Assembly (NCBI GenBank): GCA_964482645.1 | Contig: CAYZYQ010000002.1 | Location: 21,111-85,110, forward strand | DNA: 64,000 bases | DNA from: an uncultured Lentisphaeraceae bacterium | GTDB taxonomy: Bacteria; Verrucomicrobiota; Kiritimatiellia; RFP12; UBA1067 | Direction of reading: 5' to 3' | Shown: positions 3,269 to 22,513 of the stretch, piece by piece | Position numbering within the stretch: the first letter of the stretch is position 1 | Layout of the letters: each line of letters opens with the position of its first letter | Made by a program: the position numbers and the translations under genes | Notes under the pieces: model-generated | Database searches by the model: none | What the model was told of the DNA's origin: nothing | Seen by the model: only the letters and a program-made list of their open reading frames with translations

Positions 3269-3561
3269 ACGGATGGGCGATCGTCGAACGCGACGGCGTG
3301 AAAGCCACCGTGGCGCGGACGTTTCTTCAGCGCGTGCGCGGATTGATCGGTCGTCCGCCGCCACCGCCTGGTACGGGTTTGCTGATTCTCCGGTGTAATT
3401 GCATTCATACGTTTTTCATGGCGTATCCCATCGACGCGACGTTCTACGACCGCCACGGTCGCGTGGTGAAAATCGTGCGTAACATCCGTCCGTGGCGTCC
3501 GTGGGTCTGGGGCGGCTGGCGGGCTGTCAGCGTCCTTGAAACGGCCGCCGCGTCCGAATGA
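3265..3561 (+). CDS. DUF192 domain protein
   Basis: 98 aa. The FLQRVRGLIGRPPPPPGTGLLILRCNCIHTFFMAYPIDATFYD pattern matches DUF192 (COG1430-like). There is an ATGA overlap with the ispF stop. Confidence 0.6.
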   Translation: MNGWAIVERDGVKATVARTFLQRVRGLIGRPPPPPGTGLLILRCNCIHTFFMAYPIDATFYDRHGRVVKIVRNIRPWRPWVWGGWRAVSVLETAAASE

Positions 3562-3580
3562 ATGGTTGGATGGTCTCACA

Positions 3581-3592
3581 GGGGGGGGGGGG
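3581..3592. repeat. G12 homopolymer in the DUF192-purH intergenic region
   Basis: Twelve consecutive G read at 3581-3592. Confidence 0.95.
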
Positions 3593-3723
3593 CGTGATTA
3601 AAATTGGGCACGTGCTAGGAGGAGGATCGCTTCTTCGATCATGAAATTGGGAAGGTTACGGTGGATGAAACAGTGCTTTCATCCCTATTTTAGTTCCGGG
3701 TGGATGTGCTCTCTCGGTGGATG

Positions 3724-3732
3724 TGGTATAAT
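3724..3732 (+). promoter_or_regulatory. extended -10 element TGgTATAAT upstream of purH
   Basis: ggatgTGgTATAATtcc was read directly. It lies 55 nt upstream of ATG 3788. Confidence 0.4.
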
Positions 3733-3787
3733 TCCATTCTACCCATTTGATGCGGCCGTTGCCGCAAACGAGAAGGAACAGAGACCC

Positions 3788-5089
3788 ATGATGAAAGACC
3801 TGAAAGCCGCCTATCGTACCATCGAATCCGACCACTTCGCGCCGGCGATGGAAATTTCGTTCATCGACGGGGAATCCCGTCAGACGCTCCGTTACGAAAA
3901 AGTGACGTGGAACATCGGCGGTGAGGAAAAGGGGCTTCGCTATGGCGAAAACCCTGGTCAAGAAGCCGCGCTCTACAAACTCGTGAACGGCAACTTGGCG
4001 TTGGGCGATGTGGAACTGCTCGGCCCGAACCAGCCGCTCGCCTCGGTGCCCGAACTCCTCCAGAGCGGCAAGCACCCTGGCAAAACGAACGTGACGGATG
4101 CGGACAACGCGCTGAACATCCTCCGCTACTTGATGGACAAGCCGACGGCCGTTATCGTCAAGCACAACAACCCCTGCGGCGTTGCCACGGGCACGACGTT
4201 GGCGGAGGCCTATTTCCGCGCGAACAAAGCCGACCGCCTCGCGGCGTTCGGCGGTTGCATCGCCCTGAATCGCGACTGTGACCTTGAAACGGCGAAATTG
4301 ATTCTCGAAAACTACGCCGAAGTCGTTGTGGCACCCGACTTCAAGCCGGGTGTGATGGATCTCTTCGCCACGAAGAAGAATCTCCGCGTCTTCCGTATTC
4401 GCAACATGCAGCGTCTGGCCGACTACGTGGCGAAACACGTGATCGAGTTCAAGAGCCTTGTCGACGGCGGCCTCGTGGCGCAGACCTCGTTCTGCGCGAA
4501 CGCCCGCCGGCCCGAAGACTTGATGCCCGCCTACTGCAATCGCAAGATCGTGGACAAGGCGACGGGGGAAACGACGTATCGGGAATACAAAATCAAGCGT
4601 TTGCCGACGGCGAAGGAATACGAAGATCTCGTATTCGGTTGGCTTGTCGAGGCCGGTGTGACGTCGAACAGCGTCCTTTACGTCAAGGATGGCGCGACGG
4701 TGGGCATCGGCACGGGTGAACAGGATCGCGTGGGCGTTGCCGAAATCGCGCGTGACAAGGCGTACACGAAACACGCGGACTGGATTGCGTGGGAAACGTA
4801 CGGCAAGCCGTTCAACGATCTGAAGTTGGCGTTTGGCGAAACGGACGGCACGAAGAAGCAGGCTGAAATCATGGAACAGACCCGCGCCGAGAAAGGCGGA
4901 TTGCCGGGTTGCGCGATGGTGTCGGATGCGTTCTTCCCCTTCCGCGACGGTGCGGAGGTGGGCATTCGCGAGGGGATCACGTCGATCGTCCAGCCTGGCG
5001 GCGCCATCCGCGACTGGGATGTGATCGACTGCTGCAACGACGCGAACGTGGCCATGGTCTTCACCGGCCAGCGCTCTTTCCGTCACTGA
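3788..5089 (+). CDS. purH: AICAR formyltransferase (PurH AICARFT domain only; no N-terminal IMP cyclohydrolase/MGS domain)
   Basis: Internal ATG of ORF 3641..5089. Contains LRYGENPGQEAALY, VKHNNPCGVA and SDAFFPFRDG...QPGGAIRD...FTGQRSFRH, the hallmark AICARFT blocks. RYGENP sits only about 50 aa from the start. Confidence 0.8.
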   Translation: MMKDLKAAYRTIESDHFAPAMEISFIDGESRQTLRYEKVTWNIGGEEKGLRYGENPGQEAALYKLVNGNLALGDVELLGPNQPLASVPELLQSGKHPGKTNVTDADNALNILRYLMDKPTAVIVKHNNPCGVATGTTLAEAYFRANKADRLAAFGGCIALNRDCDLETAKLILENYAEVVVAPDFKPGVMDLFATKKNLRVFRIRNMQRLADYVAKHVIEFKSLVDGGLVAQTSFCANARRPEDLMPAYCNRKIVDKATGETTYREYKIKRLPTAKEYEDLVFGWLVEAGVTSNSVLYVKDGATVGIGTGEQDRVGVAEIARDKAYTKHADWIAWETYGKPFNDLKLAFGETDGTKKQAEIMEQTRAEKGGLPGCAMVSDAFFPFRDGAEVGIREGITSIVQPGGAIRDWDVIDCCNDANVAMVFTGQRSFRH

Positions 5090-5152
5090 GGCGCGTGAGG
5101 TGATAGGTGAGTGGTCGAGTTGGCGATTGTGAATTGACGAAGGCCGACTGAG

Positions 5153-6079
5153 ATGAAGGTCGTGTCGCTATTCAGCGGAGCCGGCGGACTGGATCTGGGC
5201 TTTCAGTGGGCGGGGCATGAGGTCGTATGGGCGAACGACCTCTATGTCGACGCCGTGGCGTCGTATCGCGCCAATGTGGGCGGCCACATTGTCTGTAAAG
5301 ACATTGCCGAGATTCCAAGCTCGGACATTCCGGACGGCGACATTGTTATTGGCGGATTCCCCTGTCAGGGATTCTCGGTCGCCAATACAAAGCGGCACGA
5401 ATCTGATTCGCGCAACAAACTCTACCTTCAGCTCCTCCGTGTCGTGAAGGACAAACGGCCCCGCTTCTTCCTTGCGGAAAACGTGAAGGGAATTCTGCAT
5501 TTTGCCGGCGGTAAAGTGTACGAGCAGATTGTGGCGGACATGAAAGCGCTTGGTTATCATGTCAAGAGCCGTTTGTTCAATGTTGCAGACTATGGTGTTC
5601 CGCAAAGGCGCGAGCGTGTCATTTTCGTCGGTGTGCGAGACGACGTGGCGTTTGAGTACGAGTTTCCAACTGCGACGCACGATAAGCACGGCGACAATGG
5701 ACTTCCGCAATGGATTGGGGTGGGGGAAGCGTTGGCGCAGATTGCCGATCCCGACGGACAAAACGATTTGCCCAACCACGTCTATTCAAAGTACAAGCTC
5801 AATTTCAACGGTTACATCGGCCATCGTCCGCTCGATCCTGCCAAGCCCGCACCGACGGTGACGGCGCGTGGGGACGACAAGGGGGGCGTGGTGATTCTGC
5901 CGCATCCAAACGGGTTGCGACGGATGACGGGGCGTGAACTTGCGACCGTGCAGAGTTTTCCGTTGGATTTCGAGTTCAAGGGACCGTTGTCGTCCGTCTA
6001 TCGCCAAATTGGGAATGCCGTTCCGCCTAGATTCGCCGAGGCGCTGGCGAGACAGTTCAACGGGTTTGACGAGAATTAG
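5153..6079 (+). CDS. DNA (cytosine-5)-methyltransferase (M1)
   Basis: Motif I FSGAGGLDLGF, motif IV GGFPCQGFS, motif VI ENVKGIL, motif VIII QRRERVIFVG, motif IX TGRELATVQSFP, motif X GNAVPP. Confidence 0.9.
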   Translation: MKVVSLFSGAGGLDLGFQWAGHEVVWANDLYVDAVASYRANVGGHIVCKDIAEIPSSDIPDGDIVIGGFPCQGFSVANTKRHESDSRNKLYLQLLRVVKDKRPRFFLAENVKGILHFAGGKVYEQIVADMKALGYHVKSRLFNVADYGVPQRRERVIFVGVRDDVAFEYEFPTATHDKHGDNGLPQWIGVGEALAQIADPDGQNDLPNHVYSKYKLNFNGYIGHRPLDPAKPAPTVTARGDDKGGVVILPHPNGLRRMTGRELATVQSFPLDFEFKGPLSSVYRQIGNAVPPRFAEALARQFNGFDEN

Positions 6080-6101
6080 TAGAAAACATTGGAGAAGGCA
6101 G

Positions 6102-7094
6102 ATGCGATATCTTTTCAAAAGATGTGGGCACCAGGAACTGGGTAGTATGGATGCCGATATGCGTCCGAAACGCGGACAGTATCTGCTGATGAAGATGACG
6201 CCGGAGGTGTTGTCGTTCTTTCCGCCACTTTCCATTACGCAGAAGAACGACTATCGGCTTGTTCCGTTTTTCCCGCTTTATTCTAGGACGAAGGTCTATT
6301 GCCGCTTTGTCTACCACAACGATAAGTTTCATGAGTCCACTGCGACGCAGCCACGAAACGAGTACCGTCTTTATCTGAACAGGGAAGTGCAGGGCGGCGA
6401 GTTGCGGTTTGTTGAGGGCGGGATTGTCGTGTTCCGTCTCGTGGACGAATCTGATTTCAACAGAGGAATGTTCCTTGATTACGCGGGCCCACAGGACGGG
6501 GAGCTTTACAGGGTATATGATGAACGACTACGAGCGGGCAGGCTTGATTCCGTAGGGAATTACGGTGTGTGTGACGGAGCGCTCAAGGATTTTGAATGTC
6601 GTGTCGCAAACGTCTCTAGCGAAACTTCAGATGTCGTGGTCTCGGAGACAGACATTGAGTACATCTCCAAGAACAGGGACGACGAGGCGGCGTTGTTCAA
6701 CGAAGTTTCGTTTCGTGATTTTGTGATGGTTGGCTACCGGAGGAAGTGCGCCGTCACGGGAACATCCATTGAACATGGTTCGTTGTGTAATCTTGAAACC
6801 GCCCATATCCATCCAAAGGCGCATGGTGGTACTTTCCTGCCGAGTAACGGGATGATGCTTTGCCGTGATTTCCACTGGGCGTTTGACCATGGCTTCTTTA
6901 CCCTTTCGGACGATTTGGTAGTCATCGTTTCAAAGAAGGTTTCAAGCGAAATGCTTGCTCCATACGACGGCAAGCGAATTTTTGTCCCTTCCAATCCATT
7001 TTTCCGTCCTGACATTGCAAGCGTGAGATGGCATCGCGAACATGTGTTTGAGTGCTTCGGGCAGATTCGGGCAATGAAAGTGGAACGCACATGA
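6102..7094 (+). CDS. HNH-family nuclease, putative restriction endonuclease with an N-terminal DNA-recognition-like domain
   Basis: ATG 6102 is preceded by GGAGAAGG, inside ORF 5934..7094. The C-terminal CAVTGTS...LETAHIHPKAHGG...NGMMLCRDFHWAFDHGFF is an HNH (HNH_2-like) motif. The gene sits between methyltransferase genes, and its stop overlaps the M2 start (ATGA). Confidence 0.75.
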   Translation: MRYLFKRCGHQELGSMDADMRPKRGQYLLMKMTPEVLSFFPPLSITQKNDYRLVPFFPLYSRTKVYCRFVYHNDKFHESTATQPRNEYRLYLNREVQGGELRFVEGGIVVFRLVDESDFNRGMFLDYAGPQDGELYRVYDERLRAGRLDSVGNYGVCDGALKDFECRVANVSSETSDVVVSETDIEYISKNRDDEAALFNEVSFRDFVMVGYRRKCAVTGTSIEHGSLCNLETAHIHPKAHGGTFLPSNGMMLCRDFHWAFDHGFFTLSDDLVVIVSKKVSSEMLAPYDGKRIFVPSNPFFRPDIASVRWHREHVFECFGQIRAMKVERT

Positions 7095-8152
7095 ACGTAA
7101 TTGATCTGTTTTCCGGATGCGGCGGGTTGTCCAAGGGATTCATGGATGCCGGATGCAGAGTGCTGCTTGGAGCGGATGTCGATCAGGCTGCTCTTGATTC
7201 GTTTGAAAAAAACCATCCGGGTTCGATTGGTCTTAGGAGAAGTCTTGCCGAAGAGGCAACGTTCGATAGAATGCGCGAAATCATCGGCGACAGAAAAGTG
7301 GATTTGATTGTCGGCGGACCGCCGTGCCAGGGTTTTTCACTTACCGGCCCGAGAAACTTCGATGATGAGCGCAACAAGCTGTATCTGTCGTATATCAAGG
7401 CCGTCGAGATGTTCAGACCGAAGGGATTTCTCATCGAAAACGTTCCTGGCATGGCAACGTTGTACAAAGGTATGGTAAAAGATGAAATCTTGAAACGGTT
7501 TACGAGGCTTGGCTACAATATTGATTGCAGAATTTTGTGCGCTGCAGACTATGGCGTACCTCAGACTCGCCGCCGTCTTGTATTCATTGGTGTTCGCAAA
7601 GAACTTAATGCCGTCTCGTTTCCGCGGCCTCTTCTTGAGCCGAGCGAATACGTCACGAGCCGCGAGGCCATCGATGACCTCCCGCCATTAACTGATTGTC
7701 TCGGTGAGGAAGTTTCGCGATACGACCGTCCGCCGCGGACGCAATACCAAAAACTCATGCGCGGCAGTTGTACGATACTGTCGAATCACACCGCAACCGC
7801 GCACAAGGATTTCGTCAAGGAAGTGATTGCCCAAGTCCCAGAGGGCGGAAATTACAAAGACCTCCCAAAAGGAGTTGGCGAACATAGGCGGTTTCATATG
7901 GCTTGGACAAGATGTGACGGACACAAGCCATCTCGCACGATTGATACAGGGCATCGCAATTATTTCCACTACGAATATAATCGGATTCCGACCGTTCGCG
8001 AATGCGCCAGACTACAGTCGTTTCCAGATGACTTTGTCTTCATCGGCACACGGACGCAACAGTATCGACAGGTTGGTAACGCGGTTCCACCTTTGCTGGG
8101 ATTCGTCCTTGCAAAACATCTGATGGGACTCGTGGAGGGGCGGAATGCCTAA
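7091..8152 (+). CDS. DNA (cytosine-5)-methyltransferase (M2)
   Basis: FSGCGGLSKGF, GGPPCQGFS, ENVPGM, QTRRRLVFIG, TVRECARLQSFPDDF, GNAVPP. Start is ATG 7091 inside ORF 7052..8152. Confidence 0.9.
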   Translation: MNVIDLFSGCGGLSKGFMDAGCRVLLGADVDQAALDSFEKNHPGSIGLRRSLAEEATFDRMREIIGDRKVDLIVGGPPCQGFSLTGPRNFDDERNKLYLSYIKAVEMFRPKGFLIENVPGMATLYKGMVKDEILKRFTRLGYNIDCRILCAADYGVPQTRRRLVFIGVRKELNAVSFPRPLLEPSEYVTSREAIDDLPPLTDCLGEEVSRYDRPPRTQYQKLMRGSCTILSNHTATAHKDFVKEVIAQVPEGGNYKDLPKGVGEHRRFHMAWTRCDGHKPSRTIDTGHRNYFHYEYNRIPTVRECARLQSFPDDFVFIGTRTQQYRQVGNAVPPLLGFVLAKHLMGLVEGRNA

Positions 8153-9380
8153 ACTCCGCACAATAGACCTTTTCGCCGGGTGTGGCGGACTGATGGACGG
8201 TTTTATGCAAAGCGGTCGTTTCGATACGCTTGCCTGTGTGGAGTGGGAGGAAGCACCATGCCGAAATCTCGTGAACCGCTTGAAAACGAAATGGGGACAC
8301 GCAAACGCCGAGAGGGAAGTCCTGCGCTTCGACATTCAGCGAACGGATGAACTGTTCTATGGCTACGACGATCCGAAGTTCGGACGTGGCGACGGCCTTG
8401 ACAAGCTCGTTGGCGGGATGAAGATAGATGTCATTATCGGCGGGCCGCCTTGTCAGGCCTATTCGCTTGCGGGTAGAATCCGCGACGAGCATGGTATGCG
8501 CGATGACTATCGTAACTATCTGTTCGAGAGCTATCTTGAAGTCGTTAAGCGTTACCAACCAGACTTCTTTCTGTTCGAGAACGTAATTGGGATGTTGTCG
8601 GCGGCGCCGGACGGAAGACCGATAACGAAAAAGATACGAGCAAAGTTTTCAGATGCGGGTTATGTCGTTCTCCCAGATTTTAGGGATGCGGTTTTTTCGC
8701 TTTCAGACTACGGCATCCCCCAAAATCGTCGTCGCATTATCATTTTGGGCGTTCGCGAGGAAAGTTTTCCGAATACGTCCGCAGATATCATTCGAGATTT
8801 CTATGGACGTATCATGCCATCATACCGTCAGCCGAAACGAACGGTTGAAGAGGCGATTGGCGATTTGCCCAAATTGATTCCGACGATAGAGAGGGGGAAG
8901 GTGGTCTATCATCGTCAAGGCGAACGAATCGTTCCCAACCATTTCCCGAGAAAGCACAGCGTTCGCGATGTCAAGGTGTTTAAGTTGCTTACCGAAGACA
9001 TCGAGCAAGGTCGATTTGAGTATACGTCGATTGATCGTTTGAAAAAACTGTATACGGAAGTCACGGGTAAAACAAGCAACATTCACAAGTACTACGTTCT
9101 CCGCCGTGATCAGCAGAGCAATACAATTCCGGCTCATCTGCATAAAGACGGATTTCGACACATCCATCCTGATTCAGAGCAATGCAGGACATTGACGGTA
9201 CGCGAAGCCGCTAGGCTACAAACTTTTGACGACGATTATGAGTTTTATGGAAGTATGGGCGAACAATACAAAATGATTGGAAACGCTGTGCCGCCTGCGT
9301 TTGCAAAAATTCTTGCGCGGGCGATATGTGAAATCCATATGAAGTATTGTCCGTGGAAGATACACGATCTAAACACCTAA
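8145..9380 (+). CDS. DNA (cytosine-5)-methyltransferase (M3)
   Basis: FAGCGGLMDGF, GGPPCQAYSLAGR, ENVIGMLS, QNRRRIIILG, TVREAARLQTFDDDY, GNAVPP. There is an 8-nt overlap with M2. Confidence 0.9.
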   Translation: MPKLRTIDLFAGCGGLMDGFMQSGRFDTLACVEWEEAPCRNLVNRLKTKWGHANAEREVLRFDIQRTDELFYGYDDPKFGRGDGLDKLVGGMKIDVIIGGPPCQAYSLAGRIRDEHGMRDDYRNYLFESYLEVVKRYQPDFFLFENVIGMLSAAPDGRPITKKIRAKFSDAGYVVLPDFRDAVFSLSDYGIPQNRRRIIILGVREESFPNTSADIIRDFYGRIMPSYRQPKRTVEEAIGDLPKLIPTIERGKVVYHRQGERIVPNHFPRKHSVRDVKVFKLLTEDIEQGRFEYTSIDRLKKLYTEVTGKTSNIHKYYVLRRDQQSNTIPAHLHKDGFRHIHPDSEQCRTLTVREAARLQTFDDDYEFYGSMGEQYKMIGNAVPPAFAKILARAICEIHMKYCPWKIHDLNT

Positions 9381-9393
9381 AGAAGGAATTCAG

Positions 9394-10431
9394 ATGAATC
9401 GAAAAAGTCTTTTGCTTGTGTGCGCCCTTGTGGCGGGGAGTGGGCGCGTCTACGCCGAGAAGACGTGGTTTCCCGTGGAGGATGCCGCGCCCGTGGCATT
9501 GTTGCCGCCGCTTTTGGCAACGCCACAGTCGGTGGACGGACAAAGCGCACTTGTGGCGACGCGGACGCCGGAGGCCTATGTAACGTTGAGCGTTCCAAAC
9601 GCCGCGCCGGATGCGTCGTATGCGGTTTCCTATCCACTCACGCCGGCACGTCCGATTTCAGATACCTCGCTCGTTCAGGCGGATGTCGTGAACGCGGGCG
9701 ACGCTTCGGTCTCGTTGGGCATTGCGTTCCGTTTGAAGTCGGGCGGCGAATTTCGCTGGAATGTCAGTCTGCCGCCTGGTCGTCGGCAGGTCACCCTGTC
9801 GCCGGCGGATTGCGTGTCCGCCGTGCCGACTAATCGGTGGGCGGATGTCACCGGGCTTGTCCTGTCCGTCGCCGCGCGGACATCGGATGTCTGCAGTTCG
9901 CTGACGGTTCGCAACTTGTCCGCCATCGAGGCGTTCCAAATGCGCAGTCGGGGTGGTTGCCCATGGCCGGAGGAACGCGAACTCCTGCCCGCCGATCGGA
10001 CGCCCTGTGTCTTCACCTCGCGGGCGGGCGAGTTCAAAGGCAAGCCAGATGCGCGATCGTTCAAAATTCCCGTTGATGGCCGGGCACTCTTCGGCGATCT
10101 GCCGTTCCCCAGTTCGGGCGGTAAGCTCGTGCTGACCATCCGCGCCACCGATCCGCAGACGCGCGCCGTGGAAATCGGCTTCCATCAGTCCGATGGGGCA
10201 GTCTGGGGTTCGACCGCGCTGGCCATCAGCACGGAGTGGCAGGAGATCGTGTTGCCGTTCCGCCGGATGCAGTATTTCCGCCATTGGGGACTGCCCGCGC
10301 TCCCGCCCGACGCGAAACCGGACGCGATGAAATTTACGTCCGTCCACTTCTGTTTCGGAAAATGGCTGTGCGGGGATACGCTCGATCTGCCCCACGGCTT
10401 TGAGGTCAAGTCCATCAAGATCACGCAGTAG
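9394..10431 (+). CDS. secreted hypothetical protein
   Basis: RBS AAGGAA, then a signal peptide MNRKSLLLVCALVAGSGRVYA. GC3-rich frame. No family recognised. Confidence 0.5.
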   Translation: MNRKSLLLVCALVAGSGRVYAEKTWFPVEDAAPVALLPPLLATPQSVDGQSALVATRTPEAYVTLSVPNAAPDASYAVSYPLTPARPISDTSLVQADVVNAGDASVSLGIAFRLKSGGEFRWNVSLPPGRRQVTLSPADCVSAVPTNRWADVTGLVLSVAARTSDVCSSLTVRNLSAIEAFQMRSRGGCPWPEERELLPADRTPCVFTSRAGEFKGKPDARSFKIPVDGRALFGDLPFPSSGGKLVLTIRATDPQTRAVEIGFHQSDGAVWGSTALAISTEWQEIVLPFRRMQYFRHWGLPALPPDAKPDAMKFTSVHFCFGKWLCGDTLDLPHGFEVKSIKITQ

Positions 10432-10443
10432 GAGGTTTGGGAG

Positions 10444-11526
10444 ATGAAAGTGAAATCGATTTTTCGTTCGTGGAGCGCTCTCGTTCTCGCGGCGGTGTTG
10501 ATGGGGTCGCCGGCGGCGTTGGCCGTCGGCTGGGATCGGTCGTTGGACGAGTTTCCCGCGTGTGCGGATGAAGCGGATGACACGGCGCGGTTGCAACGCG
10601 CTATCGACGCGACGCCCGACGGCGTTCTTTACATCCCGCGCGGCGTCTACCGCATTTCGCGTCCGTTGAACGTGCGGAATCTTTGTTCGCTCGACCTCCA
10701 CAAGAGCGCGGTGTTGCAGGCCGTGGCGGACATGGCATTCGTCGTGGAAGTCAATAGTTCGAACGCGCGTGCGCACGACTACAACGTTTTTATTTCCGGG
10801 GGTGTCATCGACGGCGCCGGCCGCGCCTCCTGTCTGCGCCTGACGGGATTCGCGCACTTCACGTTGAAGGACATGACGTTCCTCAACGGGCGGATGGATG
10901 GGTTGCGCGTGGTCGGCGGCTACGAGTTGATCGCGAACAACCTCTACTTCAAATGTACGCAGTCGGGGCTTGCAGGGAACATTGCCGTCAACGTGCAAGG
11001 CGGGGACAGCCATTACACAGACTGTGTGGTGGTCGACTACACGATCGGCTTCAATATCGCGAAAGGCGGCTCGAACCGTCTGACGCGCTGCCACGTGTGG
11101 GGCGGCCCCCTGCCGTCCGTCAAGCCGGGCGAGCCGCGTGAAATGCTCAAGGATTCCGTCAACTTCCGCATCGGCCCCCAGGCGGGCAGCACGATTCTGC
11201 GCGACTGCTATGCCGACACGGGGAAAGTCGGCTATGAAATCGGCGGATGGGACACGCGTCTTCTGGGCTGTTCGTATTTTAACAACTACGGGTTCAAGCT
11301 CGATGACGTGACGGTCATCAAGCATCTGCGTGGCCGCTTGCTCGTGTCGGAAGGCGCATTCGTCAAGACGTCGCCGAAATGCACGGTCTACGAAGGGTGC
11401 GGACAAGTCGAGTGGTACAACATGATGTATTCGGGATTCGCCGCCACGGACGTCTGTCCGGGTGCGCTTACATTCCAGAAGAAGAGCGCGGTCGACCAGC
11501 CGGCGCTCAAACTGGCCGGGGAATGA
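10444..11526 (+). CDS. secreted right-handed beta-helix protein (pectate-lyase-3 / GH28-related fold)
   Basis: RBS AGGAGG and a signal peptide. The N-terminal block DDTARLQRAIDATPDGVLYIPRGVYRISRPL is typical of Pectate_lyase_3-type beta-helix proteins. Confidence 0.6.
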   Translation: MKVKSIFRSWSALVLAAVLMGSPAALAVGWDRSLDEFPACADEADDTARLQRAIDATPDGVLYIPRGVYRISRPLNVRNLCSLDLHKSAVLQAVADMAFVVEVNSSNARAHDYNVFISGGVIDGAGRASCLRLTGFAHFTLKDMTFLNGRMDGLRVVGGYELIANNLYFKCTQSGLAGNIAVNVQGGDSHYTDCVVVDYTIGFNIAKGGSNRLTRCHVWGGPLPSVKPGEPREMLKDSVNFRIGPQAGSTILRDCYADTGKVGYEIGGWDTRLLGCSYFNNYGFKLDDVTVIKHLRGRLLVSEGAFVKTSPKCTVYEGCGQVEWYNMMYSGFAATDVCPGALTFQKKSAVDQPALKLAGE

Positions 11527-11539
11527 CGGAGGTGCGCCG

Positions 11540-14059
11540 ATGAGACTGAAATCGATTGCACGGGGGGCATGGGCTTTCGGTCTGGCGACGTCCTTGGTGG
11601 CGGCGGGCGCGTCCGCCGCGCCGGCTGTGCGCGAGATGTTTTTCGATGAAATTCCGGATGACGAGGCCGCCTGGATTTGTCCCGACGAACCGTTTGCGGA
11701 TGGCCTCAACAAACCGCGCTACTACCGGCGGACATTCGAGACGCGCACGGGGCTTGTCTCGGCCACGGGGCGGTGGTGGGTGGACGACACGGCACGTTTC
11801 TTCCTTGACGGGCGGCCGTGTTCGAGCGCGGCGCGGACGGTCGACCGGCCTGTCGATTTCACGACAGCGTTGAAAACACCGGGCCGTCACGTACTGGCCA
11901 TTGAGGGTACGAATCTCGCGGGAACGGGGGGCGTGTGCCTCGCGCTTGAACTCGTCTACGCCGATGGCACGACGAACCGTGTCGTGTCGGCGACCGACTG
12001 GCGGTGCGCCACGAATCGAATCGACGGCTGGGAGCAACCGGCGTTCGACGATGCCGCCTGGCCGACGGCGCGGCGGCATGACCATCTCTACGCCGCGCCA
12101 TGGTGTACGTTTGCAGACATGACAAGCCTCGCATCCGCCCGCGAACAGGAACGCCTTACCGACCTGGCGGCGCGTCAACGCCAACGTCTCGCCGCCGTGG
12201 AGGCCGCCCTTGCACAGGAGACGAAAGCCCCCGCCCGTATCGTCTACGAACAGGGAAAGCCATTGTTCGAGATGGGCGGACGGCGCTTCGAGACGACGTT
12301 CTACAATTGTTCGGAAGGGTGGAGCGTCCACAATTCCGCGCTCCATCGTCAGGTGGCGATGTTCCGTGACGCAGGGATGCACGTTTACGGCATTGGCGTA
12401 AACACGCCGCAGACGTGGCGGCCCGACGGCTCGATTGATTTCGACAACGCGATCGCGAAAATCAAGTCGGTGCTGGCGCTCGATCCCGATGCGCGGTTCC
12501 AGTTTTGTTTCGACACGTCTGCGCCGCCGGGCTGGTGGGTGCAAAAGCATCACGATGAACTCATCGGCTATGCGAACGGCACGGTGGATTTCGGACAAGT
12601 CATCCAGACGAAGAACATGGCCGTGCCGTCGTTCGCGTCGCGTCTCTGGCGACGGGAAATGGCGGATTTTCTCTCTCGCTTTACGTCCTTCCTCGAATCC
12701 ACGCCGTACGCCGTACGTATTCTTTCCTATCGTCCCGATTTCGGCATCCATCACGAATGGCATACCTACGGGATGTGTGATGGGCTGATGCCCGACAACG
12801 GGCGTGCCATGACGGCGGCGTTTCGCGACTGGTTGCGCGTCCGCTATCGCGACGACCTTGCGGCATTGCGCACGGCGTGGCGCGATTCAACGGTCACGTT
12901 CGAGACGGCGCAAACGCCGACCGTCACCGCGCGTCTCAAGCGCTCGGCGGATCCGTATCGTGACCCCGTGAAAGATCGTGCGGTGATTGACTACGAGATC
13001 TGTCATGCCGAACAGGTGCGGGATTGTCTGTTCGCGTTCAACCGCGCCGTCAAGGAGGCTTGTGGCGGTCGTGCCCTCGTGGGCAACTACTGCGGCTACT
13101 TTTTCGGGATGCCATTTGCGGCGGAGGGATTTCATCTCGCGAACAACGACTTGCTGGATTCGCCGTGGGTTGACTTCCAATGTTCGCCGTACGTCTACGG
13201 TCCCGCTTCGCGCGCGCCCGGCAACGTCCAGTACGCGCGGTGTCTGCTGGAAGGTCTGCGGCGGCGCGGCAAGTTGGCGTTGCTGGAGGCGGACAACGTG
13301 CCGTCGGGCTTCCCTGAACATCCGCATGGGAACTACACGACGAACATTGAGGAGGATATCGCCCTGCTTGCACGCGATTTCGTGCAAACGCTCTGCTGGG
13401 GTTGTGGCTATTGGTATTTCGATTTCGGCATTGGTTGGTACGACCATCCCGCGTTCGGCACGTTCTTCAAGAAGATCTATCCGATTCGCGAACGGGTGAA
13501 GGACTGCCGCAGTGTGTCCGAGGTTCTGGTGGTGGGCGATTATGACAGCGTAATGTACGTGGCCGTGCCGGGACAGGAAGTTCGGCATCAACGGCAGTCC
13601 ACCGACCTTGTGAACGCGTTCGGTCATGCCGGTGTCCCGTTCGACTCGGCGGAACTGGCGGACGTGGCGAGTGGCAAGTTGAAGGACTACAAAGTCTACC
13701 TCTTCTGCAATCTTGTTCATCGGACGCCGGAGAAGTTGCGAATCGTGGAGGCGTTGAAGGCACGGGGGAAGACGGTCGTGCTGCCTGACGTTCCGACGGA
13801 CGCGGCCGAATTGCGTCGTCTGCTGGCGGTGGCGGGCGTACATATTTGGAACGCCGATCCGCAAACCGCGATCTATGCGAACGCCTCCTGCGTGGCGCTC
13901 CATTCGGCCGTGCCGGGCGAGAAGACGATTCGGCTGCCGTCTCCGCGCCGCGTGACGATGCGCTACCCGGAGGAACGGCTCGTGTCGGAACGTACCGATA
14001 CGATTGTCTTCACGCCCCGCGAACAGACGATTTCCACAACTCTTTTCACGTTTGACTGA
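11540..14059 (+). CDS. secreted hypothetical protein, probable glycoside hydrolase
   Basis: ATG 11540 inside ORF 11462..14059. Signal peptide MRLKSIARGAWAFGLATSLVAAGASA. Long GC3-rich ORF within a glycan-active block. The family was not recognised with confidence. Confidence 0.5.
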   Translation: MRLKSIARGAWAFGLATSLVAAGASAAPAVREMFFDEIPDDEAAWICPDEPFADGLNKPRYYRRTFETRTGLVSATGRWWVDDTARFFLDGRPCSSAARTVDRPVDFTTALKTPGRHVLAIEGTNLAGTGGVCLALELVYADGTTNRVVSATDWRCATNRIDGWEQPAFDDAAWPTARRHDHLYAAPWCTFADMTSLASAREQERLTDLAARQRQRLAAVEAALAQETKAPARIVYEQGKPLFEMGGRRFETTFYNCSEGWSVHNSALHRQVAMFRDAGMHVYGIGVNTPQTWRPDGSIDFDNAIAKIKSVLALDPDARFQFCFDTSAPPGWWVQKHHDELIGYANGTVDFGQVIQTKNMAVPSFASRLWRREMADFLSRFTSFLESTPYAVRILSYRPDFGIHHEWHTYGMCDGLMPDNGRAMTAAFRDWLRVRYRDDLAALRTAWRDSTVTFETAQTPTVTARLKRSADPYRDPVKDRAVIDYEICHAEQVRDCLFAFNRAVKEACGGRALVGNYCGYFFGMPFAAEGFHLANNDLLDSPWVDFQCSPYVYGPASRAPGNVQYARCLLEGLRRRGKLALLEADNVPSGFPEHPHGNYTTNIEEDIALLARDFVQTLCWGCGYWYFDFGIGWYDHPAFGTFFKKIYPIRERVKDCRSVSEVLVVGDYDSVMYVAVPGQEVRHQRQSTDLVNAFGHAGVPFDSAELADVASGKLKDYKVYLFCNLVHRTPEKLRIVEALKARGKTVVLPDVPTDAAELRRLLAVAGVHIWNADPQTAIYANASCVALHSAVPGEKTIRLPSPRRVTMRYPEERLVSERTDTIVFTPREQTISTTLFTFD

Positions 14060-14136
14060 ACACACTCGATGACGGCCGATTGATGACGACCGTCGGTTTA
14101 TTCACACACGCATACAAGTAGCAAAAGGAAAATCCC

Positions 14137-16116
14137 ATGAAGAGAAGTCTGGTCTGTGCGGCAGTTCTAGCCGCCATCGGTATGGTCGGTGCGGACATTC
14201 CGCCGCCGTGGATGCCCGTACGGGCGTTGGATGGCAAGGTCTCCGTCTGGGGGCGCGACTATACGTTCGCGTCGAACGCCCTGCCCGTCGCAATCCGCGC
14301 GGTCGGGATGGATTTGCTCACCGCGCCCATGCGCCTTGTCTGCACGGACGCGAAGGGTACGAACATCGTCTGGACGAAGGGCGGCAGCTGGATTCAGGAG
14401 CAGGACGATGAATCCGCGACGGTCTGCGCATGGCAGGGTTCAACGGTCGTCGCGGCCGACGTGACGGCGCGAATCGAATACGACGGCATGGCCGAAATCA
14501 GCCTGGCGCTCGTGCCGGGGCGGAAGTTCCCCGACGTCTACACGATCGGCAAGGCGTGGTTGGAGATTCCGCTTGCGTCCGACTGTGCGACGCTCTACCA
14601 CTTCTCGCCCGCGTCCTGGAGCAAGCTGGACAACGTGGGCGCGGTGGAAGGGCCGATGGCGTTTCCGTTCCGCTGCGCGTTCTGGCTGGGGAACGAGACG
14701 GGCGGCCTGTGCTGGTTCAGCGAAAGCAGCGAGGGCTTCCAGAACGCCGATCCGGAGCGGACGATCGAAGTGATTCCGCAGGGGAAGACGACGCTCCTGC
14801 GCATTCGTCTGGCGGACAAGAACCTGACGTTGCCGGCGACCTGGCGGTTCGGCCTTCAGGCGACGCCCGTGAAGCCGTGGCCGAAGGCACGTGCCGTTGA
14901 CCACAAGGTTCACGCCCCGCAGATGGGCGCGGGCATCACGATCAAGGCCCCGACCGAGTGGTGGACGTGCCAGCGCGCGTTCCCCGACGGGAAGATCGCC
15001 GAATCGCTCGACCGCGCGAAGGCCCAGGGCGCGACGACGATCGTCTTCCACGAGGACTGGGTGCCCGTGCAGAACTGCCCCACGCCCCGGCCGGACTTCA
15101 AGGCCATCGTTGACCAGTGCCATGCGCGGGGGATGAAGGTGTTCATCTACCAGGGCTACGAACTCTCGCCGCTCGACCCCGCCTGGGGCCGTCACCACAA
15201 GGACTGGCTGGCGGTGAACGAGAAGGGCCATTTCACCGGCGTCTGGTATCGCGAGCCGGGCCAGCGCGACTACCGCGTCTGCTACCAGAACGCCTTTGCG
15301 GACGAATGGCTGGCGCGCGTGAAGAAGGCCTACGACGAACTCGAACTCGACGGCCTCTACTTCGACGGCACGGTCATGCCGCGCGCCTGCGCGAACGAAC
15401 GGCACGGCTGCGGCTGGCGTGACGCGAACGGCAAGCTTCACGAGACGTATCCGTTCTTCGCCGTGCGCGACATGATGAAGAAGCTCTACACGTTCGTGAA
15501 GTCGCGCGGCGGCGAAGTGGACGCCCACCAGAGCGGCTACATCTGCCCCGCGACGCTCGCGTTCGCCGACACGTACTGGGACGGCGAGCAGCTGGCCGTC
15601 TCCACGCAGAACATCAAGAAGAACCTGAACCTCGCGGCGTTCCGCGCGGAGTTCATGGGCCGCAACCACGGCGTGCCGTGCGAGTTCCTCGCCTACGAGC
15701 GTCCGGGGAAGTGGTCGATGGAGGACGCCTGGACGCTCTCGCTGCTGCACGACGTGATGGTGCGTCCCTGCGGCATCGTCAACATCCCGCAGGTCGCCGA
15801 CGTCTGGAAGGCGCTGGACGACTTCGGCATTGGCGACGCGACGTGGACGCCCTACTGGAAAAAGCCCGTGTCGGGATTGCCCGAAAAGGTCGAGGCGAGC
15901 GTCTACCGCAAGGGCGCGGATACGCTGACAGTCGTCTCCAACCTGTCGGACGAAAAGCCGGCGACGGTCGCCCTGACGCTCCCGGCGGGCGCGACGTGCG
16001 CGTTCGATGCGCGAAAAGGGACGGCGCTGGCGGTTGAAGACGGCAAGGTCAAAGTGGAACTGCCGCCGTTCCGCATGGCGATCATCCGTTGGACGGTCGG
16101 CGCGTCGGCGGATTGA
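14137..16116 (+). CDS. secreted hypothetical protein, probable glycoside hydrolase-like
   Basis: RBS AAGGAAA and signal peptide MKRSLVCAAVLAAIGMVGA. 659 aa. The function is inferred from context only. Confidence 0.5.
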   Translation: MKRSLVCAAVLAAIGMVGADIPPPWMPVRALDGKVSVWGRDYTFASNALPVAIRAVGMDLLTAPMRLVCTDAKGTNIVWTKGGSWIQEQDDESATVCAWQGSTVVAADVTARIEYDGMAEISLALVPGRKFPDVYTIGKAWLEIPLASDCATLYHFSPASWSKLDNVGAVEGPMAFPFRCAFWLGNETGGLCWFSESSEGFQNADPERTIEVIPQGKTTLLRIRLADKNLTLPATWRFGLQATPVKPWPKARAVDHKVHAPQMGAGITIKAPTEWWTCQRAFPDGKIAESLDRAKAQGATTIVFHEDWVPVQNCPTPRPDFKAIVDQCHARGMKVFIYQGYELSPLDPAWGRHHKDWLAVNEKGHFTGVWYREPGQRDYRVCYQNAFADEWLARVKKAYDELELDGLYFDGTVMPRACANERHGCGWRDANGKLHETYPFFAVRDMMKKLYTFVKSRGGEVDAHQSGYICPATLAFADTYWDGEQLAVSTQNIKKNLNLAAFRAEFMGRNHGVPCEFLAYERPGKWSMEDAWTLSLLHDVMVRPCGIVNIPQVADVWKALDDFGIGDATWTPYWKKPVSGLPEKVEASVYRKGADTLTVVSNLSDEKPATVALTLPAGATCAFDARKGTALAVEDGKVKVELPPFRMAIIRWTVGASAD

Positions 16117-16798
16117 AGCGGTAGCCCGTGCCGTAGACCGTCTCGATCAACGCGGCATCGGTGTCCAGTTTCTTGCGGACCAGCGCGACGTGCTGGTCCA
16201 GCGTCCGCGTCGATCCCAAGTAAGAGACGCCCCAGAGTTCGTTCAGCAGACGGTCGCGCGTCAGAATCTCGCCCGGATGGGCAAGGAGCAGACGGAGCAG
16301 ACCGAACTCAAGCGTTGTCAGCGGCGTCTCCTGCTGGGTGGCAATGGTGCGCAACGTGTGGCGTTTCAGATCGAGTTCATGCGTTCCGCACGGAAGCGCC
16401 GTCCAGCCTTTCGCCTGTTGTTCCGTCTCCAGCGCCCGAGCACGGCGCAGGAGCGCGGACACGCGGGCGATGAGTTCGCGGATGCCGAACGGCTTCGTCA
16501 GGTAGTCGTCCGCGCCAATTTCCAGGCCAAGTACTTTATCGGCCTCCGACGTCTTCGCCGTCAGCATGATAATCGGCAGCGTCTTGTCCGTCTTCCGGAT
16601 TTCCGTACAGACCGTATAGCCGCTTTTCTTCGGCATCATGACGTCCAGCAGCATGAGATCGGGTCGTTGTTGCGCGTAGGCCGTCAACGCGGCCGCGCCG
16701 TCGGCGACGGCGTGAACGTGGTGGCCTTGCCCTTCAAGCGCCACGGGCAACCATTCGCGAATGTGTTTGTCGTCTTCAGCCAACAGGATTTCAGCCAT
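16082..16798 (-). CDS. OmpR-family response regulator
   Basis: The receiver domain reads ILLAEDD...DLMLLDVMMP...IIMLTAK...DDYLTKPF. The C-terminal winged-helix domain reads LTTLEFGLLRLLLAHPGEILTRDRLL...TLDQHVALVRKKL...YGTGYRF. Confidence 0.9.
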   Translation of the reverse strand: MAEILLAEDDKHIREWLPVALEGQGHHVHAVADGAAALTAYAQQRPDLMLLDVMMPKKSGYTVCTEIRKTDKTLPIIMLTAKTSEADKVLGLEIGADDYLTKPFGIRELIARVSALLRRARALETEQQAKGWTALPCGTHELDLKRHTLRTIATQQETPLTTLEFGLLRLLLAHPGEILTRDRLLNELWGVSYLGSTRTLDQHVALVRKKLDTDAALIETVYGTGYRFNPPTRRPSNG

Positions 16799-18317
16799 TT
16801 GTCATGCCCTCCTTTAACCAGATTGTGAATTCACAGCCTCCGCCGTCGCGTAAGGCCACTGTCAAATCTCCACCCATGCCACGTGCGAACTGCCGGGCGA
16901 TGCTCAGGCCAAGTCCGCTCCCGCCGAACTCGCACGTCATGGAATCGTCGCCGCGCCAGAAACGCTCGAACATCTTTTCGAGGTTTTCGGGTTTGACGCC
17001 TGGCCCGCGGTCGCGGACGTGCAACGCGACGCGCCCCCGCGTCCGGCGTTCCGCCACGACTTCGGGCGGTCCGCCCGCCGCCGCATACTTGGCCGCGTTC
17101 TCCAGCAGATTGCGCAGCGCGTGGTGCAGTCCGCCAGTGTCCGCTTTCACGATGATGTCCGGCGGAATCTGCGCATCCGGCGCGAGTTCGGACACGACGG
17201 AGATGAGCGGGAAGTTCCGCAGTTCAAACGAGTAGCGGTTTCTTTCCAGTCGACTGAAATTCAGGACGTCCGTCACCATCTCCGTCAGGCGTCCCGTCTC
17301 CTCCATGATCGACCGTCCCGCTTCGCGGCGTTTCTGCGCGTCTGGCAGAAGATCTTCCGCAATCAGTTCGGCGCACATGCGGATGGACGTCAGCGGCGTC
17401 TTGAATTCGTGAGAGACGTTCGATACGAAGTCCGTCTTCATGAGCGATTCGGCGCGGGCGCGGTTCGCGGCGCGGAGGAGGAGGCCGCCGCCCGCGACGA
17501 GCGAGGTGACGAGCAGGGCGAGCAGACAGGAACCGTTCGCCACGAGCGTCCATGACGCGCCCGCCATCACTTCGTTTCCATTCCGCCACATTACGCGGAT
17601 GCGCATCCCCGGCAGCAAGGCGTCCAGCGGCGCTTCGCCGTAGATTGACCCCGGATGCGGTTCCGAGGACGCGGGCAGGACAATGCGGTCGTGGTGATCG
17701 CGGACTTCGGCGATCGTCGCGCGGGGGGATGTGTTGCCGGGATTGTCCGTCCCGTTGGCCACGAGCGCGGCTGGAATACGCGAGAGCGGCGTAAGCACGT
17801 CGATTTCCATGCCGCAGACGACATTCGTCGCCACGCGAATCCAACTGATGACGTCGGGTCCGTTTACGCCCAACCCAACCGTCCAACCCGAAATCGATTC
17901 GGGCCAGTCGTCGACCCACGTGGCGTCGGGTCCGAGTTGCAGCCCTTTGCGCAACAGGAACGCCCGTTGGACGTCCGTGCCGTTTTCCGCCGTTGGCCAG
18001 ACGATGCCACGGCCCGCCTCCCAGATGAACACGTTGCGCACGTAGGGATCGTGTTTCATCAGCCAGGTGAGCATTTCCTGACGTTCCTTCGCGTTCCCCG
18101 CCAACCGTGCCACGCGGGCGAGTTGTCCGTCGCCGACCGAACGAATCTGCGAACAGATGTCCGACGCGGCGTATTGTGCGCGAGCCTGCAATGACGCCTG
18201 TTCGGCCTCTTGGGCACGGGCGGCTTCGCGGAAGAGGAGGCGAATGCCCCAGACGGTCAACAAAATGGCCGGTGCGCCGATCGCCAGAAAATAGAGCCGA
18301 AGGTCACGATTGATCAT
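16791..18317 (-). CDS. sensor histidine kinase
   Basis: ATG 18317 inside ORF 16791..18530. Two TM segments, an H-box SHEFKTPLTSI, and an HATPase region NLLENAAKYA...RDRGPGV...GGSGLGLSIA. It overlaps both neighbouring genes. Confidence 0.85.
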   Translation of the reverse strand: MINRDLRLYFLAIGAPAILLTVWGIRLLFREAARAQEAEQASLQARAQYAASDICSQIRSVGDGQLARVARLAGNAKERQEMLTWLMKHDPYVRNVFIWEAGRGIVWPTAENGTDVQRAFLLRKGLQLGPDATWVDDWPESISGWTVGLGVNGPDVISWIRVATNVVCGMEIDVLTPLSRIPAALVANGTDNPGNTSPRATIAEVRDHHDRIVLPASSEPHPGSIYGEAPLDALLPGMRIRVMWRNGNEVMAGASWTLVANGSCLLALLVTSLVAGGGLLLRAANRARAESLMKTDFVSNVSHEFKTPLTSIRMCAELIAEDLLPDAQKRREAGRSIMEETGRLTEMVTDVLNFSRLERNRYSFELRNFPLISVVSELAPDAQIPPDIIVKADTGGLHHALRNLLENAAKYAAAGGPPEVVAERRTRGRVALHVRDRGPGVKPENLEKMFERFWRGDDSMTCEFGGSGLGLSIARQFARGMGGDLTVALRDGGGCEFTIWLKEGMTNG

Positions 18318-18958
18318 GGCGTACCCTCGCTGTGCGCCCGCGCGGGGACGCCGTTCGTCATGGCCCGTGTCAACGGCGGACGCGGGCCGTCGGGCACGAG
18401 GCGCGGCAGATGGTAGAGGACGCGATCCCGTTCGTTCCAGGGCAGCCCCTCGACTTTGATGTGGATTTTGTTGAAGGATGTGACGATGCGATCCATCAAA
18501 TCCGGCCGTGACGGGCCAATCGTTCCCCAACCTTGGCAGAATACTTTCAGCAGATTGGGACGTTTGAGTTTTTCATTTTTCCGCAGTTCCATGACGCCGA
18601 TGGACATCCCTGCGAAGAGGGCGGCGCCGCCGCTTACCGACAAGCCGGCGATTTCATGGATGATGTCGTCCCGCTGGCTGCCCAGTCGGCGCGGCGGCAT
18701 GATGAGCCGCACGTGGTCGGCGTAGGCCACAACGGACACGATGTCGTCGTCCATCAAGTCGCCGAGAAAATCGAGCGCGCGCGTCCGCACGTCCGGACCG
18801 GCCAGATGCGAGCAGTCAATGACGATGGCGACGTTCCAGGCTTCGTTCGGCGTCCGATCCGCAACAGACCATTCCCCGTTCGGCCCGATGCCGGGTTGGG
18901 CGCAGACCGACAGTCCGCCCCACGTCGCCACCAGCATGTACAGCATCCGTTTGAACAT
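18314..18958 (-). CDS. exported vWA-like domain protein
   Basis: The signal peptide is MFKRMLYMLVATWGGLSVCAQ. It has a vWA-like layout (VAIVIDCSHLAG..., VSVVAYADHV..., GGAALFAGM), and the MIDAS motif is degenerate (DCSHL instead of DxSxS). It is the first gene of the kinase operon. Confidence 0.55.
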   Translation of the reverse strand: MFKRMLYMLVATWGGLSVCAQPGIGPNGEWSVADRTPNEAWNVAIVIDCSHLAGPDVRTRALDFLGDLMDDDIVSVVAYADHVRLIMPPRRLGSQRDDIIHEIAGLSVSGGAALFAGMSIGVMELRKNEKLKRPNLLKVFCQGWGTIGPSRPDLMDRIVTSFNKIHIKVEGLPWNERDRVLYHLPRLVPDGPRPPLTRAMTNGVPARAHSEGTP

Positions 18959-18969
18959 TTTGTCGTCCC

Positions 18970-21790: not shown

Positions 21791-22513
21791 TTATTTCTCA
21801 AATGGGATTTGTCCGCTTCCTCTAATCGAAACGTGATGCCTTGTGCCGCAACCGATGACAACATGATCGTCGAGAGGGATGCCGACAAGATTCCCCGTTT
21901 CAATGAGGCGCTTGGTTTCGGCCAAGTCTTCGTTGCTGGGTGTTGCATCTCCGCTCGGATGTGTGTGTGCTACAATTACGGATGCCGCGCCAAGGCGTAT
22001 CGCCTGACGGAAAATATCTCTGGGATGAAGCGGCGTAGCATCAAGAACTCCTCTGAATACCAATACAGGTTCGCACAAAAGGCGCCCTTGGGTGTCGAGA
22101 TAGAGCGCAAACACGTTTTCCTGCTTCTCGTCGATTCCGACTGATAAAACCTGCCGCACAACATCGTCTGAAGACACGATCACACGTTTGAATGACCGTT
22201 GGGAAGTTCTGACATTGCGCTTTACAAGGGCAAACGCCGCAGCAAGCTGGACGGCGGCAACCTTTCCGACACCGGGAACTTTGGCTGCGACAATCTGCTG
22301 CCATGTCGCATCGACAAGGTTTGCCGCGCTGCCAAAATGCTTGATCAGCCTGTTGGCGAGATCGATTGCGCTCGACCCTTTTTGACCGGTACGGATGAGT
22401 ATCGCCAACAACATCGCGTCCGGCATCTCCCTGACCGGATCAGCCGAACGCATAAACACCTCGCGAGGGCGAGATTCTGGGGGCAAGTCCTTGATTTTGA
22501 GTGTTTCAGCCAT
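21791..22513 (-). CDS. radC: RadC-like JAB/MPN domain protein
   Basis: The N-terminal part reads IKDLPPESRPRE...MPDAMLLAILIRTGQKGSSAIDLANRL. It also contains GVGKVAAVQLAAAFAL, and the JAB motif is VAHTHPSGDATPSNED. Confidence 0.85.
   Translation of the reverse strand: MAETLKIKDLPPESRPREVFMRSADPVREMPDAMLLAILIRTGQKGSSAIDLANRLIKHFGSAANLVDATWQQIVAAKVPGVGKVAAVQLAAAFALVKRNVRTSQRSFKRVIVSSDDVVRQVLSVGIDEKQENVFALYLDTQGRLLCEPVLVFRGVLDATPLHPRDIFRQAIRLGAASVIVAHTHPSGDATPSNEDLAETKRLIETGNLVGIPLDDHVVIGCGTRHHVSIRGSGQIPFEK

Follow-up and report, generated by a model that had tools for sequence, protein, structure and literature searches.

A locus with three cytosine-5 methyltransferases and one nuclease in a Lentisphaeraceae bacterium is probably a complete restriction-modification system beside an orphan of a second

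Why should a single restriction nuclease be accompanied by three cytosine-5 DNA methyltransferases? The question is raised by a compact locus in a 64,000-nucleotide (nt) stretch of DNA from an uncultured Lentisphaeraceae bacterium (assembly GCA_964482645.1, contig CAYZYQ010000002.1, positions 21,111 to 85,110), hereafter the window, in which four genes follow one another on the + strand: the 5-methylcytosine (m5C) methyltransferase M1 (5153-6079; 308 amino acids (aa)), the restriction endonuclease R (6102-7094; 330 aa), and two further m5C methyltransferases, M2 (7091-8152; 353 aa) and M3 (8145-9380; 411 aa). The original prediction, made from the sequence of the window, considered this gene content unusual, and offered as explanations a degenerate or multi-site specificity, a nuclease with several recognition modes, or merged restriction-modification (RM) systems in which extra methyltransferases survive as orphans. 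Comparison with related loci makes it very probable that the locus is two independent Type II RM modules, a complete System A formed by R, M2 and M3, and M1, an orphan from a different system, System B.

The case for System A comes from the surroundings of R in other genomes. Using an alignment of R, we fetched 76 R loci from species-representative genomes and typed their neighbouring open reading frames (ORFs) against M1, M2, M3 and R. M2-type and M3-type genes adjoin R in 63 of these loci, with no other methyltransferase or nuclease content; the order is M2-M3-R in 31 loci and R-M2-M3 in 30, with the methyltransferase pair inverted in the other two, and the M2-type genes are 51-86% identical to M2. 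Most of the remaining loci lie at contig ends, have a frameshifted R, or share the HNH domain alone. The hosts include Bacillota, Bacteroidota, Cyanobacteria, Campylobacterota, phyla of the candidate phyla radiation and others. R, M2 and M3 are a complete, conserved, mobile three-gene module. M1 has no regular place in it: an M1-type gene occurs in only two of the 76 loci, L001 (a Lentisphaeraceae metagenome-assembled genome (MAG); 88% identity) and L004, and the relatives of R at 86, 76, 70 and 66% identity are found in R-M2-M3 loci without M1.

The relatives of M1 have different company. Four loci with M1 relatives and unrelated flanks, with Kiritimatiellae and Clostridia MAGs among their hosts, all have two ~310-aa m5C methyltransferases and a 417-419 aa HNH_2 protein. 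We call the M1-like methyltransferase of this set Ba, its partner Bb and the nuclease H419. A metagenome scan via M1 gave the order Bb-Ba-H419 in 75 of 80 loci. Among 85 M1-homolog loci whose contig spans the nuclease position, drawn from the metagenome scan and from loci L077-L086 and L096-L099, 82 have Bb-Ba-H419 or Ba-Bb-H419. We name this module System B (Bb, Ba and the HNH nuclease H419); M1 is its Ba methyltransferase, with 76-89% aa identity to the Ba of intact System B loci. Bb is a paralogue of Ba at 55% identity, and the variable regions of the two are homologous (48% identical). H419 resembles R in the HNH core only (28-31% over ~80 aa), and the N-terminal parts of the two nucleases are unrelated. 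In one Clostridia MAG, System B is preceded by a 72-aa, controller-protein-like HTH_26 ORF (L096, 4854-5072), which has no counterpart in the window.

A sister strain carries System B at the very site that R, M2 and M3 occupy in the window. In L098/L099 the order is purH-Ba-Bb-H419, followed by the genes found downstream in the window (342, 360 and 838 aa), and Ba is 97% identical to M1 at the aa level. By blastn, positions 977-3349 of L098 align with 3697-6069 of the window at 93.8% identity, and positions 5616-10389 with 9366-14144 at 90.2%, with no alignment between the two flanking blocks. The breakpoints in the window are therefore at 6069/6070 and 9365/9366. Because the flanks align on both sides and nothing aligns between them, window 6070-9365 (+ strand), which comprises the last 10 nt of M1, R, M2, and M3 without its last 15 nt, is allelic to the sister strain's "Ba tail + Bb + H419", and M1 is part of the resident flank, outside the R-M2-M3 cassette. 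The C-terminal tail of M3, native in other loci, is truncated here, and its last five codons come from the flanking DNA. Neither Bb nor H419, nor a remnant of either, was found in the 64-kb window, and no remnants were found in L001, yet Ba-type genes sit with both in the 82 loci described above. Since Bb and H419 are absent from the window and R-M2-M3 stands in their place, M1 is an orphan methyltransferase. Of the explanations offered in the original prediction, it is the merging of RM systems, with an extra methyltransferase surviving as an orphan, that is borne out by this allele and by the intermediate forms described below. The neighbourhood of purH is prone to rearrangement, since window 16109-20000 is inverted in L001 (3660-7458), where it lies upstream of purH, and the downstream flank of the RM island differs among the window, L001 and L092.

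Locus L092 lost M1 and kept the rest. Its order is purH, a scar of M1, R, M2, M3, with purH 87% identical and with R, M2 and M3 at full length. The scar consists of the M1 start and 11 initial codons (identical to L001 at 34 of 39 nt), and appears to be joined to the 3' end of M1 through a shared GCGGG, the match on the 3' side being short and weak. No M1 scars were found upstream of R in L002, L003, L087-L091 or L093-L095. M1 is dispensable for R, because L092 and 63 loci without M1 keep R.

These comparisons make it very unlikely that all four genes form one system, in which R would have a degenerate or multi-mode specificity and three methyltransferases would be needed to cover its sites. 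The locus has the look of such a unit. The 22-nt spacer that separates M1 from R (6080-6101, + strand) has a Shine-Dalgarno-like GGAGAAGG at 6091-6098, ahead of R; R and M2 overlap by 4 nt at an ATGA junction, and M2 and M3 by 8 nt, all of which reproduces the tight co-directional packing that had first been described. All three methyltransferases are intact, M1 is under purifying selection, and the same four-gene order is found in L001 and in three further assemblies. Against this stand the 63 loci that have R with M2 and M3 only, the relatives of R at 66-86% identity that lack M1, the loss of M1 from L092, the tie of the M1 family to Bb and H419 in 82 of 85 loci, and the sister strain, which places M1 in the resident flank and outside the cassette. 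The idea of independently mobile modules without conserved linkage, raised with the original prediction, holds for M1 relative to R-M2-M3 and fails for R, M2 and M3 among themselves.

Other features of the locus are as they had been described. The upstream neighbour of M1 is purH, as judged by an AICARFT/IMPCHase profile match, and the ORF downstream of M3 (9394-10431) has a hydrophobic N-terminus. From YgbB and DUF192 through purH to the ORFs of 308, 330, 353, 411 and 345 aa, gene sizes and order are identical in three independent public assemblies, so the locus is not an assembly chimera. M1 ends in TAG, R in TGA, and M2 and M3 in TAA. The guanine-plus-cytosine (GC) content of the island is 0.514, compared with 0.615 for the whole window, so that the region is indeed AT-richer than its surroundings and its composition is consistent with horizontal acquisition; the GC content of M1 (0.564) lies between the host value and that of R-M2-M3 (0.49-0.51). 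A scan of positions 4900-9600 for promoters and terminators gave counts not above those in shuffled sequence, and is neutral on the operon reading. The absence of a vsr gene is consistent with a search of the window using an E. coli Vsr sequence, which gave no credible match; its best hit was an ORF that we take to be similar to Rrf2-type regulators.

By profile and catalytic motifs, M1, M2 and M3 are all assigned to the C-5 cytosine DNA methyltransferases. PF00145 was matched over nearly its full length by M1 (E 3e-71), M2 (6e-69) and M3 (1e-54), with 240.8, 233.5 and 186.3 bits (cutoff 22), and TIGR00675 scored 227, 195 and 173 bits (cutoff 100.65). Together with the translations, which contain motifs I (FSGxGG/FAGCGG), IV (PCQ), VI (ENV), VIII (PQxRxR) and X (GNAVP) in each of the three proteins, these matches agree with the initial impression that all are catalytically intact. 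Their variable regions differ, as first described, measuring 94 aa in M1, 129 aa in M2 and 144 aa in M3, and cannot be aligned with one another; M2 and M3 are ~30% identical overall and their variable regions are unrelated. PDB sequence searches with M1, M2 and M3 matched only the catalytic core of HaeIII, HhaI and DNMT1 and none of the variable regions, and because the matches are confined to this conserved core, solved structures are uninformative on the target sites.

An orphan could be a gene in decay, and M1 might be a non-functional remnant on its way to being lost. Its outright deletion in L092 and the disappearance of its partners, Bb and H419, fit this idea. The gene itself does not, and we consider the idea quite unlikely: the M1 ORF and all of its catalytic motifs are intact, and the ratio of nonsynonymous to synonymous substitution rates relative to L001 is 0.044 for M1, similar to the 0.041 of M2 and the 0.040 of M3, with the synonymous sites of M1 near saturation. 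The variable region of M1 is 72-89% identical to that of Ba from intact systems, as conserved as the catalytic core, and 87-89% identical to L001 and to the Ba of one intact system; in several independent assemblies M1 is found at 97-99% identity. M1 is under purifying selection and is not decaying. As an orphan of System B it probably continues to methylate the System B site on its own strand, an activity that R would not need, and it is plausible that this one-strand methylation now gives partial immunity to the System B nucleases of related strains (L098, L077).

Several loci preserve mixtures of the two systems that differ from the one in the window. In L004 the order is Bb-Ba-R-M2-M3, and the M3 ORF reads on, without a shift of frame, into the final ~32 codons of H419, which contain an internal stop (RMDYGALIPPSIRLPGCVNADFVRWR-stop-ENYNGM-stop); here the System A cassette replaced ~90% of the System B nuclease gene. 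In L004 (1-6622), a single R is surrounded by Bb, Ba, M2, M3 and an M2-like gene (39% identity), five methyltransferase genes in all. Its Bb and Ba are identical at residues 2-45, which points to gene conversion between these paralogues. L100 (Logan SRR32508927, 323-5864) mirrors the window: its Ba-Bb-H419-M2-M3 provides four m5C methyltransferases and R is missing, with breakpoints that correspond to window 6069/6070 and 7089/7090. In L156 (Ga0335395_10064701) an M3-type gene lies directly upstream of Bb-Ba, such that the systems abut in the opposite order. The mixed forms could have arisen either from a tandem ancestor, Ba-Bb-H419-R-M2-M3, through varied deletions, or through cassette exchange between strains.

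How might System A work with one nuclease and two methyltransferases? R belongs to a family with 482 full-length matches of ~330 aa each, of which we aligned 27 sequences (mean column identity 58%). Residues 216-268 of R (6747-6905, + strand) match HNH_2 (PF13391) with 38 bits (cutoff 21), and all 27 family members have H235, N249 and H258, the putative catalytic residues, which align to TagI; by this profile and these H...N...H residues, the C-terminal part of R is classed as an HNH nuclease of the HNH_2 subfamily. An AlphaFold model built from the family alignment (pLDDT 84.8) has two parts, a beta-rich N-terminal domain and a C-terminal HNH domain. A Foldseek search of the PDB matched the N-terminal domain to the C-terminal domain of BfiI (3zi5; E 8e-5, TM-score 0.64, target-normalised), the N-terminal domain of EcoRII (3hqf; 1.5e-4) and the B3 domain of UbaLAI (5o63; 3.5e-4), followed at lower rank by the B3 domains of plant ARF proteins and VAL1. 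We predict from these matches that approximately residues 1-176 (6102-6629, + strand) fold as a B3-like pseudobarrel, presumably the sequence-recognition module of the enzyme, and R appears to combine a sequence reader and a non-specific cutter in one protein.

Sequence comparisons tie this N-terminal domain to known B3-like families only indirectly. Residues 1-178 of R had no Pfam match at E<=10, including the B3, EcoRII-N, BfiI_DBD and NgoFVII_C models, and hhalign gave a probability of 0.5% for a relation to an NgoFVII_C protein. A distant sequence relative, P0300, matched BfiI_DBD with E 7e-5 and 23 bits, below the cutoff of 25. When 1.84 billion representatives were scanned exhaustively with HMMER, the domain was found in 105 clusters, nearly all with the ~330-aa architecture. 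Full-length relatives of R were absent from PLSDB plasmids and INPHARED phages, where only HNH-domain matches occurred, and were present on two IMG/VR contigs. In L093, a stand-alone 146-aa ORF directly 3' of M3 (3378-3818) matches the C-terminal B3-like domain of NgoFVII (PF20731, E 1e-29) and has no detectable sequence relation to the N-terminal domain of R.

The predicted pseudobarrel would place R beside BfiI, EcoRII, UbaLAI and NgoAVII, which use the same recognition fold and share with R a modular build of separate recognition and catalytic domains. They differ in the nuclease with which the B3-like domain is paired: PLD in BfiI and NgoAVII, PD-(D/E)XK in EcoRII and UbaLAI, and HNH in R. 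The combination of reader and cutter would resemble that of BfiI or of FokI-type enzymes, but with an HNH cutter. We found no paper that describes a restriction enzyme with B3-like and HNH domains, in a search of the literature, with REBASE outside its scope.

The HNH domain of R suggests another kind of enzyme, a modification-dependent nuclease (Type IV or IIM-like, as TagI, VcaM4I and ScoMcrA), for which the neighbouring methyltransferases would not be antidotes. TagI and VcaM4I are the best PDB matches of the nuclease domain both in sequence (residues 211-317 of R only, to the HNH domains of 6ghs and 6yex) and in fold; TagI, VcaM4I and ScoMcrA have an HNH_2 domain homologous to that of R in the same order, with the reader N-terminal and the HNH domain C-terminal; and NCBIfam gives a partial match, in the HNH part only, to a phosphorothioate-dependent restriction enzyme. 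These likenesses lie in the HNH half of R. Foldseek aligned R with TagI over 118 columns, and with VcaM4I over 265-274 columns at a root-mean-square deviation of 18 and a TM-score of 0.23. TagI, VcaM4I and ScoMcrA sense modified DNA through SRA, EVE or sulfur-binding domains, whereas the reader of R is predicted to be B3-like, as in BfiI, EcoRII and UbaLAI, and not SRA, EVE or PUA. Characterised PUA/SRA-HNH modification-dependent enzymes have, a few exceptions aside, no adjoining methyltransferase gene (PMC6765204). That typical lack of methyltransferase linkage extends to TagI, VcaM4I and ScoMcrA (PMC6765204), but R is almost always linked to two methyltransferases, with two m5C methyltransferase genes directly beside it in 63 of 76 loci. 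A nuclease dependent on m5C, encoded in one operon with enzymes that write m5C, would attack its own host. We give next to no credence to this alternative.

As part of a Type II system, R would read DNA with its N-terminal B3-like domain, cut with its C-terminal HNH domain, and cleave near or outside its site, and M2 and M3 would each take one strand of an asymmetric site, methylate a cytosine there and thereby block R. The precedent is HgaI/MhoVI, in which two m5C methyltransferases each modify one strand of GACGC/GCGTC (PMC12376442). Since two dissimilar m5C methyltransferases travel with R, as in HgaI, the likeliest reading for System A is that its site is asymmetric and that each strand has its own methyltransferase. 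HgaI/MhoVI-type gene content, one nuclease and two m5C methyltransferases in a compact and probably polycistronic arrangement, is found in Systems A and B alike; the likeness is one of gene content. The pairs differ in that M2 and M3 (~30%) are much less alike than Ba and Bb (55%). A classification published in 2008 left the nuclease fold of HgaI unassigned (PMC2441816); R is a protein of 330 aa with a predicted B3-like and HNH architecture. K-mer depletion in the host flanks of System A (~0.88 Mb), analysed without matched controls, we regard as uninformative on specificity: no asymmetric candidate stood out, and the depleted k-mers were generic palindromes such as GGCC, GATC and CCGCGG.

System A itself varies in a few of the loci that we collected. 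R is split into two ORFs in L052 (9974-10988) and L059 (9974-10922), probably a frameshift or a pseudogene, with the adjacent M2 and M3 intact, which looks like loss of the nuclease before loss of the methyltransferases. In L073 (Aquibacillus halophilus, 6461-10996), three m5C methyltransferases of other kinds flank a distant relative of R (28% identity), and one of them is on the opposite strand. On the unrelated contigs L002 (~9600-9900), L087, L090 and L091, a conserved non-coding element lies just upstream of R-M2-M3; its final part is a GC-rich hairpin, GGCGCGCCCCTCTAAC...AGAGAGGCGCGCC, after which comes a T-run, and it could be an RNA gene or a hotspot for insertions. An Rfam scan of the element in L002 gave no match. 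System A is followed by RadC in L087 (4246-6840), where GmrSD is present too, and in L090 (3680-4402).

Several points weigh against the account that we favour, a complete System A beside an orphan of System B. The B3-like assignment of R is structural, R itself having no Pfam-level match, and the terms "asymmetric site" and "strand-specific" derive only from the analogy with HgaI-type systems. The strong selection on M1 means that M1 is more than debris and may have a current role. L004 is a 6.6-kb MAG contig, perhaps unreliably binned by taxonomy. Either direction of exchange between Systems A and B, and one event or several, would be compatible with the data. The junction between Ba and R lies at an almost identical codon in L004 and the Lentisphaerae loci, and the two systems abut in at least four configurations (the window and L001, L004, L100, and L156), both of which hint at an affinity between them beyond that of a leftover gene and its new neighbours.

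One explanation of such an affinity would be that Systems A and B share or overlap in their target and compete, such that either pair of methyltransferases protects against either nuclease and M1 is partly redundant with M2 or M3. The direct abutment of the systems in these arrangements would be expected from competitors, as would the exact substitutions: in L100, H419 is at the position of R in the window, between Ba and M2, and in L004, R-M2-M3 is exactly where H419 would be expected. We nonetheless regard a shared target as unlikely, given that the variable regions of Ba and Bb (94-96 aa) are not significantly similar to the M2 (129 aa) or M3 (144 aa) regions, that R and H419 are alike in the HNH core only, and that the other system is nearby in just ~3-4% of the loci of either. 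RM genes commonly cluster in shared hotspots anyway. A combined proposal, which we put forward tentatively and judge doubtful, is that the R family is an uncharacterised Type IIS-like class of B3-like and HNH enzymes and that Systems A and B are specific competitors that oust each other's nuclease. The family would then comprise ~100 clusters, with a pairing of reader and cutter that may not have been described for any studied enzyme. Were the systems such competitors, possibly with overlapping targets, the purH locus would be a multi-stage record of RM ousting and of the birth of an orphan in situ.

The locus around M1 is not the only RM island in the window. A second island of low GC content (0.44-0.54) lies 12 kb downstream on the - strand (21791-24687), and encodes a JAB protein similar to RadC (21791-22513), another m5C methyltransferase, the fourth (22506-23654), and a restriction endonuclease of the HindVP family (23599-24687; PF09519, E 1e-109). 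RadC thus recurs beside m5C modules, in L087, in L090 and in this island.

For annotation, our analysis indicates that the locus should be read as a complete RM system with an orphan methyltransferase and not as a three-methylase system; what it records is ordinary turnover of restriction systems in unusually clear intermediate stages. The R family and the 417-419 aa nuclease of System B are candidates for new asymmetric-site restriction enzymes. For RM biology, the locus is a rare and well-resolved case of turnover in situ, and is relevant to the debate on how solitary methyltransferases originate. According to a pan-genome survey, solitary RM genes seldom derive from complete systems that have degraded in situ (PMC4176335). 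M1 resembles the solitary methyltransferases left by degraded RM systems in being without its cognate nuclease and its partner and in being kept by selection. Unlike in that survey (PMC4176335), the in-situ origin of the orphan is directly visible in related genomes, which yield an intact allele, a replaced allele, a nuclease stub, a variant without its nuclease and the scar of a deleted methyltransferase.

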